The notes beneath the pieces were generated by a model, which had not been told where the DNA came from, searched no databases, and was given only the letters and a program-made list of their open reading frames with translations. The translations under genes were made by a program, and so were the position numbers. Below are positions 13,131 to 57,840 of a stretch of 64,000 nucleotides of DNA, piece by piece (position 1 is the stretch's first letter; every line of letters begins with the position of its first letter). Source of the stretch: Eledone cirrhosa (lineage: Eukaryota); NCBI GenBank assembly GCA_964016885.1, contig OZ024746.1, forward strand, positions 71,672,001 through 71,736,000, in the 5' to 3' direction.

Positions 13131-13384
13131 AGAGAGATATGCTTTAACTTTAATTATATCTCATAAAATAATACAACTGGTTTTTCCACATTATACATAT
13201 TGTTAGCACCCCAAACACTTAAATTGGGTTTATATTTTAATATAACCTAATGTTTGTTGAGTGAGATGGTTACCAGTCAAAGTTTAGCTTTAAACTATCT
13301 CTGTTATTGTATTAAATATATATATATATATATATATATATATATATATATATATATATATATATATATATATATATATATATA

Positions 13385-13588
13385 TAGGAAAAGAGTGAGG
13401 ACCACGACGGCTGAGCTCCGGCCGTTTCCACAGCTAGATCTTAACTGTTCGGAACTAGCTGTCGGAACGGCCGGAGCTCAGCCGTCGGGGTCCTGAGTCT
13501 TTTCCTATTACCCACTCTACTACCCTAATTATCGAGTAATCTGGTGCATTATGGTCCACCTGGTTCCTTACTACACTTTCTTTGTTAT
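13385..13588 (+). mobile_element. Fold-back PLE-like element, family D (half-hammerhead palindrome plus tail)
   Basis: Inverted repeat 13385-13507 plus tail TTACCCACTCTAC..GTTAT, all within (TA)n. Family copies at 16903, 23521, 38516, 41736, 42690, 43053, 50986 and 62950. Confidence 0.75.
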
Positions 13589-13937
13589 ATATATATATAT
13601 ATATATATATATATATATATATATATATATATCCATGATGGATGTCCCAAGATGACTGTTATTTGTAGCCCGACTACTTCTATGTCTTTTGGCCAACATT
13701 AGACACTAAACTCCATTTGTGCACATCAGTATATAGATAGATATATATCCTGATGTACAGCACTGCCCCTTTATGTTAGAAATCTTGAAATACATGCACA
13801 CAAACACACACGTACACAAACACACACGCACGCACAAAAAGCATGCGCGCGCACACACACACAAACACATATATGATATAAATGTGTGCATATGTGTGCA
13901 TGTATGTATGTATAAATGTATGTATATATGTTTATGT

Positions 13938-14538
13938 CAGGTCACCAGTTGGTGCTACTGGTAACATGTATCCCAGTACAACCTGTCTCATGGCCGTTGG
14001 CGACTAAACTGGCAACCCCAGCAAGATTTCTTGGTGAGGAGGGTGACTTTGGACATGTTGCAGGACTAAAATCAGAACCTGTCAAAGGGCAAAGGAGCTC
14101 TTAGGAGTCAATGGCCATCCAAAATCACCGGGAGAGATGACCTCTTAGCCTTTGTCAAGGCAGAATTCTAGGAGAAGGAAAACTCTGATATAACACCTGC
14201 AACTCTGATGGTATCCAATGATGTTGACTTGTTCTTCTTTTTGGAAAATATCATCTTGGTTAAGAGAGTGGGACTGGCTTTGTGCAGTGCCTTTGCTCAC
14301 TATAAAAGCTTCACGGCACAGGCATTGCTTTATATCTGGAGATCTCTCTGCACTTGTCGTTACATGGTACCATGGGCCCAGCACTATGTGTCAATAATTG
14401 TCACAAGTGTAGTGTTTGTACCAGAGTTTTCAAGTCGCTGGCTGGACTAAAAAGTCACACTCGTTCAGCGCATCGGTAGGAGTTCTCCTACATGGATATA
14501 AAGTAGTGGCCGTACTCGAAAACGAGTTGGCAGCCACC
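13938..14538 (+). mobile_element. Dispersed repeat resembling an RTE-clade LINE 5' region (copy 2, longer)
   Basis: Contains GGCGACTAAACTGGCAACCCC and GGAGAAGGAAAACTCTGA. Same 3' end as 8917-9307. Confidence 0.55.
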
Positions 14539-15636
14539 ATATATATATGTATGCATGTAAGTGTTTATATGTATGCATTTGTACGTATATGCTGCTTGCT
14601 TAATCTCTTTATCTGTTAGCGCTCACTTTTTCTCCCTCCCTTTACTCAAATGCTGTTTCTCTCCTCTCTCTCTCTCTCTCTCTCTCTCTCTCTCTCTCTC
14701 TCTCTCTCTCTCTCTCATCCTCACTCTTTCTATCCCCTCTCGGTTTACTTTCATACTCCGCCTCTTTCTTTCTCTTTCCCTCTCTCTCTCAGACTCTTGT
14801 TTCCACCTCTCTAACTGCCTCTGTCCTCGCCCCGACTCCCCTTCTCTCAATCATCCAGTCGCCTGTATCATCCGATATCCAGTATATATGTGCTGAAAAC
14901 TGAGCTGATATCTTGTCATTGGATACCTGGCTAAGGAGGTTTCAATCCCAGCGTGCCGCACCCATCCTCCGATTCCCCCTCCTGTACTTTAACACATTTC
15001 ACCGTATGATTAATCAGCGCTTATAGACTTCCCTATACAACAAATAGAAATATTTACACACACACAAAATACATACACATATATATATAAATATCTATCT
15101 ATCTATCTATCTATCTATCTATTTATCTATCTATCTATCTCTCTCTCTCTCTCTATATATATATATATATATGTAATATATATATATATATATATATATA
15201 TATATATATATATATGTATATATATATATATATGTATGTGTGTATGTGGCTGTGTGTACATATGCATATATATAAATATATGTACATATATATGTGTGAG
15301 AATAGATATATATATATATATATATATATATATATATATATATATATATATATATATATATATATATATATATATATATATATACATATATATAGTATAT
15401 ATATATATATATGTATATATATATATATGTATGTGTGTGTGTGTCTGTGTCTGTGTCTGTGTGTACATATACATATATATATAAATATATATACATATAG
15501 ATGTCTGAGAATATATATATATATATATATATATATATATATATATATATATATATATGTGTGTGTGTATATGTATATATATATAAACGAATTTATATAG
15601 ATAAACAGACGTGTAGATAGATAGATAGATAGATAT

Positions 15637-16155
15637 ATTTCTTTATTAGCCACAGGGGCACAAAAGAAGGGGACAAATACAAAGGGGGAAGTTTACATAC
15701 AATAAAAACGTGTAAAATGTTATCACAGATGGAATTTAAAAAAGTTAGTCGATTTTCCCCAATAGAGGGAGACATAGATAGATAGATTTCTTTATTAGCC
15801 ACAAGGGCGCAACAAGAAAGGGGACAATACAAAGACATGCCGGGGATTTTACATACAGTCGTGTAAAAAATATAAAAACAAACAATTTCAACAATCGAAA
15901 TCCCCAATAGGGGGGAGGCGCCACAAATGGGTTGTTTATACCCCGTCGATAGAACAACCCTCAACTCAAGGAGCGTGTTGTGCAAGTGCTCCTTTCTTCC
16001 TTTTGCTCTCTTCCTCAACCTACAGGCTTATAAACAGAGAAGGCCCAATCACTCGGGCCATTTTCGCTTCATTCACCCACCTTTCAGTAAATTTACTGGG
16101 GTGCAGTGCCTCTCTCTCCACCCTGATTCTCCTTCTAAAGTGATACTTAAAGAAG
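15637..16155 (-). mobile_element. L1/Tx1-clade LINE 3' end (two tandem 3' ends) inserted in (GATA)n
   Basis: 16155-16020 reads [40 protein letters not shown], similar to a Tx1 ORF2 C-terminus. 3' ends TGTGGCTAATAAAGAAAT at ~15786 and ~15637, each running into (CTAT)n. Confidence 0.65.
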
Positions 16156-55380: not shown

Positions 55381-56349
55381 GTAATCTTTAGGTGTACAGT
55401 CAAATGATCCCCTTTCAGCCAATGACATTCCTTACTCCAGCAGTACCATAAATACCCAAGTCCAGTGACAAATATTCGCTGTACTTCCTCTTCCTTCTTT
55501 TTTACAAAAATACACCTAAACAATGTATATTATTTTATTGGATTGTTTGCGTGTATGTATTTATTTATTTCTAATACTTCTGTATTGTATTTATTTACTT
55601 TGTTCTTAACTCTGTAGCGGAGATTCATTCGGTCTCCTAGTTAGAATTTTAGTCTACGACTTCTGCTATACCATTTACGTGGTTTTGTCTTTGCGTGCTA
55701 TTGTTCTCCACGCTCCACATATGACGTATTATCTTCGTTTTTTTGTGTTCATTGCCAGAGAACGTCTCTATGAACCACCTAAGAGAACATTAGTCTTCGA
55801 CCTCTTTTATACCATAAACGTGGTTCTGTCTTTGCGCGTAATTGTTTTTCACCGCTCCTATTAATGACGTATCTTATTCGTTTTTTCCCGTTCTTTGCCA
55901 GCGAACGTTACCACGAACCAAAGTATCGTCTTCCTGTCTTCCTCCGGTTGCAACGTTTTTTGAAATATCCACTTCTGCGTTTACAAATTGACTTTGTTAG
56001 TTTCAGAAGATCCCGTTAAGGGTGAAAGCAGCGATTCTTTGCTTAAACTTTAATCTGTTATTTTAATAAATATTTGCTCTACGGTTCTTATATATTTGAT
56101 ATATATTTATCCTTATCGAGCCCTCTTTGGGTTTTAGTCTTGAAATTTATTATTATTACTATATATATATATATATATATATATATATATATATATATAT
56201 ATATATATATATATATATATATGTTTGGCTGCACTTCTGTTTGCATTCATCGGCTTAGCTGCGGCTCGAGCTTCGAATATGCTGTACTTCCATTTGTATA
56301 TATATATATAAAGTAGAAACAATTATTATTATATATATATATATAGTTA

Positions 56350-56520
56350 AACTTTGGGAGGGTCATACCGCCAATAAAAACACACCCTCCTGTTGGTTTT
56401 CACTTCAATTTATCATAAATTTCCGGTTGGCTGATATTATCAAAACTCTTTGGTCGCACATTCTGTGGCCTCGTCAGTGACTAGGTTTTTATTTTGTTCT
56501 GTACTACACCATCTTTTTGT
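56350..56520 (-). mobile_element. Degenerate family C hammerhead element
   Basis: TTTGGGAGGGTCAT end. Minus strand: GTCA-CTGACGA-G-GCCACA..TGCGAC-CAAA-GAGT-TT-TGAT. Confidence 0.65.
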
Positions 56521-57174
56521 GAGTCGTGTGTTGTTATCATCATCATCATCATCACCATCATATATATATATATATATTCATATGTGTGTGTGTGTGTGTG
56601 TGTGTGTGTGTGCGCGCGCGCGCGCGCGTGTGTGGGAGGGGGGGTGTTATATTATATACTAATATCAGGTACCATATAATAACACTACCAGCATATCCAA
56701 AACAAAACTTCTAGTTCGTTCACTCCTTCCCCGTAAATTAGTAGACAGCCCCTGTGTGTGGGTAAACGTTGGAGACAAAAAGACCAAAGTGTGAAAAGTG
56801 AAGACCTTCAAGAGCCCTATTATTGTACCATAAGAAACTAATTCTTAATTCCTTTCCCTAAACTTCCCCCGTCTCTCTCTTTTTCTCCCTTTCTCTCTAT
56901 TCCTCTACTATCTCCTCTTACCACCATCAACACTAACTCCACCGCCAACACCATTACAAGAACTTGAAGGAATAGTCTTAAAGAAATAGAAGGTTGCAAG
57001 TTCACTGTATGTGCCCTTGTTCTTCTCCTCATCACCGTCATTATACTATCATCATCATTATAATTATGGTTATCATAATTCTCATCGTCACCATCATCAT
57101 TATCATCGTCATCATCCTTCTCATTATCGTCGACATCATCGTCATCATCATCATCATCATCATTATATATATAG

Positions 57175-57388
57175 AAGCTGGAGGAAGAGAGGAATAGTAT
57201 CACTACAAAACTGTGCAATACAATGGTGACTTCATATGGATGCAGATGTGCCGAGGTCATCCAAAGAAAGGGCCTCCACACTTCCTATTAATGTTTGAGA
57301 ATGCATAAATCATAGTTTGTAGACCAAATCTCATGTTTAATTGTGTTTGCCTAAAGATTGTTGCCCTTCTCTTATTTTAATCACTGTA
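57175..57388 (+). mobile_element. Tc1 transposon 3' remnant: transposase C-terminus plus right TIR
   Basis: KLEEERNSITTKLCNTMVTSYGCRCAEVIQRKGLHTSY* (57175-57291), then terminus CACTG followed by TA. Confidence 0.78.
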
Positions 57389-57413
57389 TATATATATATA
57401 TATATATATATAT

Positions 57414-57840
57414 ATAATATAAGATCAAAAGATGGTTAAAGGAGTTCCATATATTTTATTATGCGCATTTCAAAAACAAACATCATCAAGCAATAATATT
57501 TGTGTTTTCATCAGATAAAACAGGAGAACATGATATGAAGGCTAAAAAACACTTGTGGATAGTGCAGTTTTAAATCAACATGATATGTTGATTTAAAACT
57601 GCACTATCCACAAGTGTTTTTTAGCCTTCATATCATGTTCTCCTGTTTTATCTGATGAAAACACAAATATTATTGCTTGATGATGTTTGTTTTTGAAATG
57701 CGCATAATAAAATATATGGAACTCCTTTAACCATCTTTTGATCTTATATTATGCATACTCCAGTCCCACAAACTGTAGAGTGCTTCTTATCCGATATCTG
57801 CATTGCTTTATTGTACTACAATAAAACTCACCTCCTACAT
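57414..57840 (+). mobile_element. Family B palindromic PLE-like element: 168-bp arms, GAT spacer, 3' tail
   Basis: Arms 57414-57581 / 57585-57752. Tail 57753-57840 with TAGAGTGC. (TA)n on both sides. Confidence 0.85.
57646..57712 (+). ncRNA. Type I hammerhead ribozyme motif (family B; mirror copy on minus strand at 57454-57520)
   Basis: TTTTAT-CTGATGA-stem II-GAAA-TGCGCA-TA-ATAAAA. Confidence 0.8.

Follow-up and report, generated by a model that had tools for sequence, protein, structure and literature searches.

What can short repeats have in common when their 3' tails share little beyond a single word? This question is raised by a 64,000-nt stretch of Eledone cirrhosa DNA (contig OZ024746.1, positions 71,672,001 to 71,736,000; hereafter the window), which is microsatellite-rich and carries, between (TA)n runs, short repeats with hammerhead ribozyme cores, which often consist of two joined arms, one inverted and one direct. 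An earlier note on this stretch listed 13 octamers with a GAGTRC motif in the tails of ribozyme families that it regarded as unrelated, and proposed a shared cis-signal for the mobilising reverse transcriptase (RT)/endonuclease. Our analysis points to GAGTRC being the 3' arm of a predicted bulged hairpin in tails that likely belong to Penelope-like elements (PLEs) of the Hydra clade, and to this hairpin probably being the RT-endonuclease site that starts target-primed copying 3-8 nt upstream.

GAGTRC sites of the window

All 13 octamers were found at the places given or at most 8 bases away. GAGTRC is present in 12 of them, the remaining one (13257) reading GAGTGA. The sites represent only six families: A (19201, 25244 and 50119), B (16952, 23572, 41784, 42738 and 51035, five copies of one family), D (57776), E (19401 and 43267), G (50603) and H (13257). 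The first microsatellite junction lies 20-68 nt downstream of the sites, in agreement with the "tens of bases" described before. Furthermore, 16 of the 33 unmasked GAGTRC sites on both strands are located 20-75 nt before a microsatellite, whereas the share among unmasked hexamer sites in general is 12.6% (binomial p 5e-7), and this enrichment ranks 6 among 9,917 degenerate hexamers in the window; the 33 sites are not independent, since the 13 listed ones come from only six families. The tails had been said not to align otherwise, which holds between families and fails within them. The tails of family C, reported to be devoid of the motif, lack it at the two tailed ends that were checked (35200-35245 and about 38420-38480).

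The families A, B, D and E are inserted into (TA)n. A type I hammerhead is predicted near their 3' end, with core and stems in A, D and E and as a 3' half with helix III in B. Comparison by eye with a published table indicates that the window hammerheads are canonical, with a closed helix III, and not of the minimal form. An Rfam scan gave no hammerhead family among the 150 listed of 309 matches, those listed being microsatellite-driven and below threshold. All copies in the window are truncated, and the tails of its families are about 75-95 nt long.

A predicted bulged hairpin in the tails

GAGTRC can be read as the 3' arm of a hairpin with the layout RCTC-stem-loop-stem-2 nt bulge-GAGY-RC(T) and the consensus RCTC-Y...R-TH-GAGY-RCT, in which the loop is free and the base conserved. 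ACTC is found 11-17 nt upstream of GAGT in 10 of the 13 listed sites. The full combination of ACTC, an inner stem of at least 3 pairs, a 2-nt bulge and GAGT occurs at 8 of the 300 GAGT sites in the window, and all eight are listed sites; they come from families A, B, D and E and show four distinct inner stems, each of 4 bp. Control bulges of 0, 1 and 3 nt gave 2, 0 and 1 sites. The window hairpins, mostly of the ACTC/GAGT form, are as follows (E values are those of the covariance model described below; hairpin 1 is the copy that follows the hammerhead):

25230..25251, + strand: family A hairpin 1, with ACTC, a 4-bp inner stem, the 2-nt bulge and GAGTGC (model E 0.08)
19187..19208, + strand: family A hairpin 1, degenerate (ACTG for ACTC)
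50119..50140, - strand: family A hairpin 1, degenerate (CCTC for ACTC)
51035..51060, - strand: family B hairpin 1; genomic copies have near-invariant stems and a variable loop and bulge
51066..51068, - strand: family B short-end site, located 5 nt before ACTC and consisting of TAT, a micro-match to (TA)n
41785..41810, - strand: family B hairpin 1
42738..42763, - strand: family B hairpin 1 in the tail-only insertion 42691-42766, which starts at the short-end site
16952..16977, - strand: family B hairpin 1
23571..23596, - strand: family B hairpin 1
13506..13543, + strand: family B hairpin 1 with GAGTAA, absent from the earlier note (model E 0.11)
57757..57783, + strand: family D hairpin 1
59141..59156, - strand: 3' half of a family D hairpin in the tailed arm of the insertion 59086-59333, absent from the earlier note
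43253..43274, + strand: family E hairpin 1
19401..19421, - strand: family E hairpin 1 with an imperfect inner stem
50604..50625, - strand: family G hairpin with the first inner pair broken, in a copy that has lost its hammerhead
9447..9481, - strand: GCTC/GAGC hairpin of a further family, absent from the earlier note (model E 2.8e-5)
19575..19608, + strand: possible further GCTC/GAGC hairpin right after (AT)11, weak (model E 0.46)
13257..13264, + strand: the excluded TTGAGTGA site

The last of these was left out of the motif set because it belongs to a separate family (with 41611), has no upstream ACTC and is not matched by the model. It lies in a related pair of sequences, 13150-13315 and 41545-41717, that end in (TA)n with GAGTGAG and have no validated hammerhead; the copy at 41611 is able to fold a different stem.

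The hairpin in Hydra-clade elements of other animals

Loci outside the window were picked by a C-terminal peptide pattern only, blind to the hairpin (7 in genome contigs, as host DNA in bins, and at least 121 in metagenomes, with about 260 estimated). Among 130 matches of this pattern, 73 had a hammerhead-like core and 58, in 31 families, passed stem checks. Nine loci that ended too early without the motif were dropped and 49 loci in 27 families were kept, including 2 short loci retained because the motif was present. GAGYRC was found 55-110 nt after the hammerhead core in 28 of the 49 loci and 19 of the 27 families, in the form GAGCAC and with covarying stems, and the loci without it are mostly short-ended copies when judged by eye. 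As controls, the reversed word was present in 1 of 27 families and upstream windows gave 21 of 611; the antisense word appeared in 10 of 27 families because GAGCACTC is near-palindromic. The positional enrichment over many copies on which the earlier claim had been made to depend is thus present in outside Hydra elements, and the word itself is real and broader than proposed, GAGYRC instead of GAGTRC.

These loci carry one open reading frame (ORF) of about 700 aa with RWK, DKT, a CxCX5C linker, CxxC and CxH. They were assigned to Hydra by protein motifs, using P0004 (79% identical to the L079 protein) and a 61-protein consensus. At least 4,797 homologs of the Hydra-clade protein were counted; P0001, P0004, P0008, P0010 and P0066 gave no Pfam family and P0004 no solved structure. 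According to the supplement of Craig et al. 2021 (PMC8557442; this and the other publications are cited here from the parts of them that were available), Hydra PLEs target (TA)n and have canonical hammerheads. In the consensi of that supplement, a GCTC...GAGCAC hairpin was seen by eye in 3 of 6 Hydra elements, at the 3' end of Hydra-2_Amil and Hydra-2_Ajap and twice before the start codon of Hydra-1_Ajap; Hydra-1_Crog has hairpin variants and Hydra-1_Amil stops before a tail. The window families, taken to be unrelated in the earlier note, look like members of one PLE clade. The genome bins G001 and G002, labelled bacterial, contain PLE-rich animal DNA (L074-L080 and L231-L267), and in G001 one (TA)n tract can hold a stack of different PLE families.

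Several comparisons bear on how far the hairpin is confined to this clade. In G001, 25 of 39 hammerhead rows were judged not Hydra-type and none of these had the hairpin in its own tail; many of the 25 are short-ended and only 3 are tied to another RT-GIY-YIG ORF, so specificity for the Hydra clade is only suggested. The Naiad and Chlamys consensi gave listed text matches in coding or unrelated context, a search that misses matches across line breaks. In viral contigs the peptide pattern had 0 matches, and a hammerhead plus motif pattern used as a negative control matched 73 loci, 55 of them distinct, none with a 4-bp inner stem. A loose RCTC..GAGYRC pattern was too unspecific, showing no excess over its reversed control in two genomes.

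The outside hairpins also allowed the pairing to be evaluated. For 24 of them, one per family and slot, the partner was chosen without regard to inner pairing. With a 2-nt bulge, 23 of the 24 close their first inner pair (C-G 11, T-A 8, T.G 4), compared to 1, 0, 4 and 13 for bulges of 0, 1, 3 and 4 nt. This number of closures was reached by 41 of 20,000 shuffles, counts that are not probabilities because the families are related. The bulge reads TT in 16, TC in 4, TA in 3 and TG in 1 of these hairpins, and the motif is followed by T in 24 of 24. Covariation was analyzed in 19 of 36 hairpins, those with longer stems, as a MAFFT alignment of all 36 mis-registered the short loops. In the 19, 92% of cells pair, a value reached by 0 of 500 shuffles, with slid controls at 22-56%; all four inner pairs change on both sides, the first having been selected for and the other three not. 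The outer pair is G-C in outside hairpins and mostly A-U in the window.

A covariance model was built from these 19 outside hairpins, with no window sequence. It matches 8 of the 13 listed sites at E<0.2, and 10 listed sites are among its 20 window hits, which also include the new sites 9447 (GCTC/GAGC form) and 13506. When 66 kb of phage DNA were scanned, no hit exceeded 12.6 bits, a score surpassed by 11 of the window hits; one of these, at 19201, is on the wrong strand.

Hairpins and insertion ends

Full-length elements carry the hairpin twice, which, like its covarying bulged structure, was absent from the earlier note. A hairpin was seen just before the ORF start in 7 of the 35 outside loci with at least 1,900 nt upstream, the other 28 not having been checked singly. 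Two hairpins precede the ORF in 6 loci, one of the pair being degenerate in L080, and in L130 and L180 the hammerhead, hairpin 1, hairpin 2 and the start codon follow each other in one piece. The spacing between the two is 40-48 nt in 5 of the 6 loci.

Short ends were mapped as the place where exact identity between short-ended and tailed copies of one family stops. In 22 of 29 comparisons this place is -3 to -8 from RCTC, or in 21 of 29 once a mis-anchored case is removed; others stop at substitutions (-13, -15 and -23), are mis-anchored (-2) or are blurred by TA (0). Family B could be followed in reads, 19,341 from run X13 and 10,648 contigs from X1, perhaps the sample of origin, with positions 50900-50999, on the long-end side, not covered, and 2,492 reads of run X13 leave the family at -5 into (AT)n. 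Taking as variable those places with at least 4% other letters, these reads vary at 1 of 16 stem positions (wobble kept), at 3 of the 6 loop and 1 of the 2 bulge positions, and at 25 of the remaining 90 (Fisher p about 0.04). Tailed ends, in turn, fall at -3 and -6 of hairpin 2 in two comparisons and, by eye, at -4 in L080 and L160, where the 5' leader was set against the 3' end of the same locus. In 18 cases they lie 32-51 nt after GAG, which fits the hairpin spacing. The stop carries a TA that corresponds to the (TA)n target. The constant spacing is that to the short-end junction 3-8 nt upstream of the hairpin, a point missing from the earlier note, the downstream junction varying over 20-68 nt.

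Every one of the 11 two-armed insertions examined in the window, also those of family C, combines a short end with a tailed one. In a twelfth candidate, 9414-9599, the second arm is unclear, and 50988-51132 has a 9-nt inverted short end in addition. Examples are:

24858..25310: family A, with an inverted short-ended arm, a hammerhead at 25124, a tailed arm and (TA)n on both sides
57417..57838: family D, with hammerheads at 57514 (- strand) and 57652 (+ strand) and one short and one tailed end
13386..13585: family B, one short and one tailed end
19358..19548: family E, with a hammerhead at 19487 and one short and one tailed end
34572..35245: family C, one short and one tailed end and no GAGYRC hairpin

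Family C is likely another PLE clade and may use another signal. Its copies (34572-35245, 38217-38480, 28780-28990, 41196-41380 and 56346-56480) have an AC-rich tail and a different hammerhead-like core. A (TA)n run stands directly before hairpin 2 within the full-length leader of L180 (386-505), perhaps as an insertion into the element's own start site.

How the hairpins may direct insertion

A simple mechanism would account for these ends. The Hydra protein would grip a hairpin and nick (TA)n, and the freed end would pair with TA just upstream of the hairpin, where copying would start and run away from it, so that the hairpin used is never copied. With two such start sites, the "tail" would be the distance between them, that is, the hairpin spacing would make the tail. 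As a less supported step, both ends of the cut target could be primed, one at each hairpin, which would yield inverted insertions with one short and one tailed end. We offer only tentatively, and with some doubt, the fuller proposal that the paired hairpins form an internal start code at which two RT-endonuclease subunits on one RNA prime both (TA)n ends simultaneously. In vitro, the RT of PAc, an element of the anole, starts at two internal sites on either side of the tail and depends on RNA located about 55-60 nt downstream from where its start region is stated to lie; both strands are extended, and the protein is predicted to dimerize (PMC11167929). A shared cis-signal for the mobilising RT/endonuclease, as the earlier note put it, is the best reading of the motif, and the end mapping supports it; the hairpin is a candidate binding site.

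A number of observations weigh against this reading. Two short ends lie at -10 and -11, and family C shows the same short/long asymmetry without such a hairpin. Three of the 13 listed sites lack ACTC. The hairpin is weak on its own (z from -2.0 to +1.0 in 11 folds), the lowest-energy fold of family B is another hairpin, and many outside apical stems have only 1-3 pairs; the ratio of G.U to A.C in the stems, 15 to 6, is not decisive for RNA. If it forms, the fold is probably held by a protein. The octopus consensus Hydra-1_Obim has only a doubtful hairpin variant by eye, and the start site of the anole element reportedly does not match the DNA that is cut (PMC11167929), unlike the TA match in Hydra elements. 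A search of the window with 122 protein queries and one profile gave no remnant of a PLE ORF, which would encode a telomerase-like RT and a GIY-YIG endonuclease. Hairpin 2 is likewise missing from the window, an absence that fits tailed copies stopping before it. A family B pattern gave 0 matches in genome contigs and 0 in viral contigs, so no ORF is linked to this family. For the window families, Hydra membership and a second hairpin are thus inferred. In addition, several 5' ends are placed at the base of hairpin 1 (42767, 23606 and L080); a cut or a transcript start would account for these as well, and an RT stop is a further candidate.

These 5' ends are an argument for reading the hairpin as the mark of a cut, with the endonuclease or a host nuclease cleaving RNA or single-stranded DNA 5' of each hairpin and RT starting there: the tail-only insertion 42691-42766, the junction 23606, the 5' end of L080 and the start of the Hydra-1_Ajap consensus share that place. 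RNA-seq reads of the anole element end on its start sites, the D. virilis endonuclease requires the tail for recognition (both PMC11167929), and Craig et al. attribute the tail to endonuclease-mediated resolution (PMC8557442). We nevertheless consider a cut unlikely, since the anole protein starts internally in vitro and added 3' sequence leaves its product size the same (PMC11167929), and since the ends scatter over -3 to -8 and track TA, as priming by micro-matches predicts. The location of both hairpins directly before the start codon, where PLE promoters have been placed (PMC8557442), would suit an internal promoter or 5'-leader signal acting in duplex DNA or translation, with ends nearby only through AT-richness; the near-palindromic GAGYRCTC (the antisense control, 10 of 27 families) and the invariant or nearly invariant unpaired RCT after the stem would suit it too. 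A site read in duplex DNA, however, would not call for an inner stem that covaries and keeps a fixed 2-nt register, and two end peaks, each just before one hairpin, would be left unexplained, which makes this explanation rather improbable.

It is very improbable, in our view, that the hairpin is primarily a partner of the hammerhead, whether as a folding aid, a dimer contact or a ligation signal for circular RNA, with a secondary link to the ends. Hairpin 1 does lie within about 55-100 nt of the hammerhead core, and PLE hammerheads may need dimers or protein, with circular intermediates having been proposed (PMC4209133, PMC11167929). The spacer differs between families, though, no conserved complement to the hammerhead loops was noticed (no scripted search was aimed at such complements), and hairpin 2 has the same consensus at another distance while the ends track each hairpin. 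Finally, chance or mere descent, that is, a short word without function common to a few related repeats, could be argued from the 13 sites being only six families, five sites being copies of one. It is hardly credible given the enrichment in 19 of 27 outside families with differing flanks, the compensatory changes, the lack of any 4-bp inner stem among the 55 pattern hits of the phage control and the window matches of a model built from outside hairpins only.

Two further identities of the word were tried and rejected. A splice donor (GTRAGT) does not fit the bases before GAGT, which are TT, TC or TA, and GAGC is commoner outside. Hammerhead helix III, which is ACTC/GAGT in some Hydra hammerheads, does not fit sites that have no preceding GAA and lie 55-110 nt further on.

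Other repeats of the window

Other small families are represented by further hammerhead-like cores at 11438, 38841 and 8742 on the + strand and at 36058, 50901 and 34092 on the - strand, where no GAGYRC hairpin was seen. Near-identical copies of a 400-bp repeat adjoining (AT)n (8910-9307 and 14120-14538) contain a GAGTAC without hairpin, far from any downstream junction. A family resembling short interspersed elements, with a tRNA-like box, has many copies that are often nested or in tandem (17700-18850, 22620-22790, 25480-25700, 48000-48600, 54600-55350 and 63500-63850). A satellite with a 55-bp unit occupies 4620-6550 in about 35 copies of 95-98% identity. The decayed coding-like stretch at 46200-47100 gives the impression of a non-LTR (long terminal repeat) retrotransposon remnant, which it may be.

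Significance and comparison with known systems

The comparative support for the predicted structure and for its link to both insertion ends is good, and we conclude that the cis-element is real, belongs to a known retroelement clade and is apparently undescribed. Neither motif nor hairpin was found in the published literature searched, Repbase and subscription papers on PLE tails, which may mention it, being outside that search; the main texts of PMC8557442 and PMC3846280, in the parts available, do not contain 'hairpin' or 'stem-loop', the former does not describe the motif there, and the supplementary figures of PMC11167929 may show a stem-loop of the anole element. PLE ends are known to be 5'-truncated, to come with an inverted copy and to carry a tail in some cases (PMC8557442, PMC3846280). 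What sets the two 3' ends, and hence the tail and the inverted shape, has been an open question since the class was described, and the first in vitro study of a PLE reported two internal starts with no defined signal in the text available. With a hairpin of 25 nt that keeps a fixed offset to either end in dozens of families, the question becomes directly testable. The hairpin also allows Hydra-clade ends to be recognised without an ORF, and invites comparison with how telomerase, the sister enzyme, finds its internal template. Should such a start code exist, a single rule would account for the tail, for its length and for the pairing of a short with a tailed end in inverted insertions, and RNA of any kind lying upstream of such a hairpin could be written into (TA)n. 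The hairpin would offer a minimal handle for the insertion of RNA cargo at (TA)n, provided that it suffices by itself to direct copying.

The window families resemble the Hydra clade (PMC8557442) in their (TA)n targets, canonical type I hammerhead, inverted 5'-truncated arm and optional tail, and differ from it in being mostly ACTC/GAGT instead of GCTC/GAGC, in their longer tails and in having no ORF in the window. Non-LTR retrozymes (PMC7229834; bioRxiv 10.64898/2026.07.22.740005) are likewise short non-coding hammerhead repeats derived from PLE ends, for which no such hairpin is described in the parts of these papers at hand. They are head-to-tail tandem units with hammerheads, whereas the window copies are single or inverted truncated ends. 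PAc, a Poseidon element of Anolis (Frangieh et al. 2024, PMC11167929), shares two starts that bracket the tail, a need for downstream RNA and the extension of both strands. It belongs to another clade, and the Hydra signal would be a repeated bulged hairpin of the 5' leader downstream of each start, where a TA match is seen.

The stringent long interspersed nuclear elements (LINEs) ZfL2 and UnaL2 (PMC4176376, PMC1636434) offer a parallel in a small, protein-bound stem-loop that is needed for copying and that in UnaL2 has an internal loop. Their stem-loop lies inside the copied 3' end and its loop gives specificity. The Hydra hairpin shares with them a covarying stem-loop near the copied 3' end; it is located outside the copied tail, beyond the start, and would remain uncopied, with base and bulge conserved, the loop free and two copies present. 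Telomerase RNA (PMC4993307) combines an internal template, a short primer-pairing region and a stem-loop with a conserved base that binds protein, all of which recall the arrangement proposed here. Its template-adjacent helix, placed 5' of the template, stops copying, whereas the Hydra hairpin is found 3' of the start of copying and would fix the position of that start.

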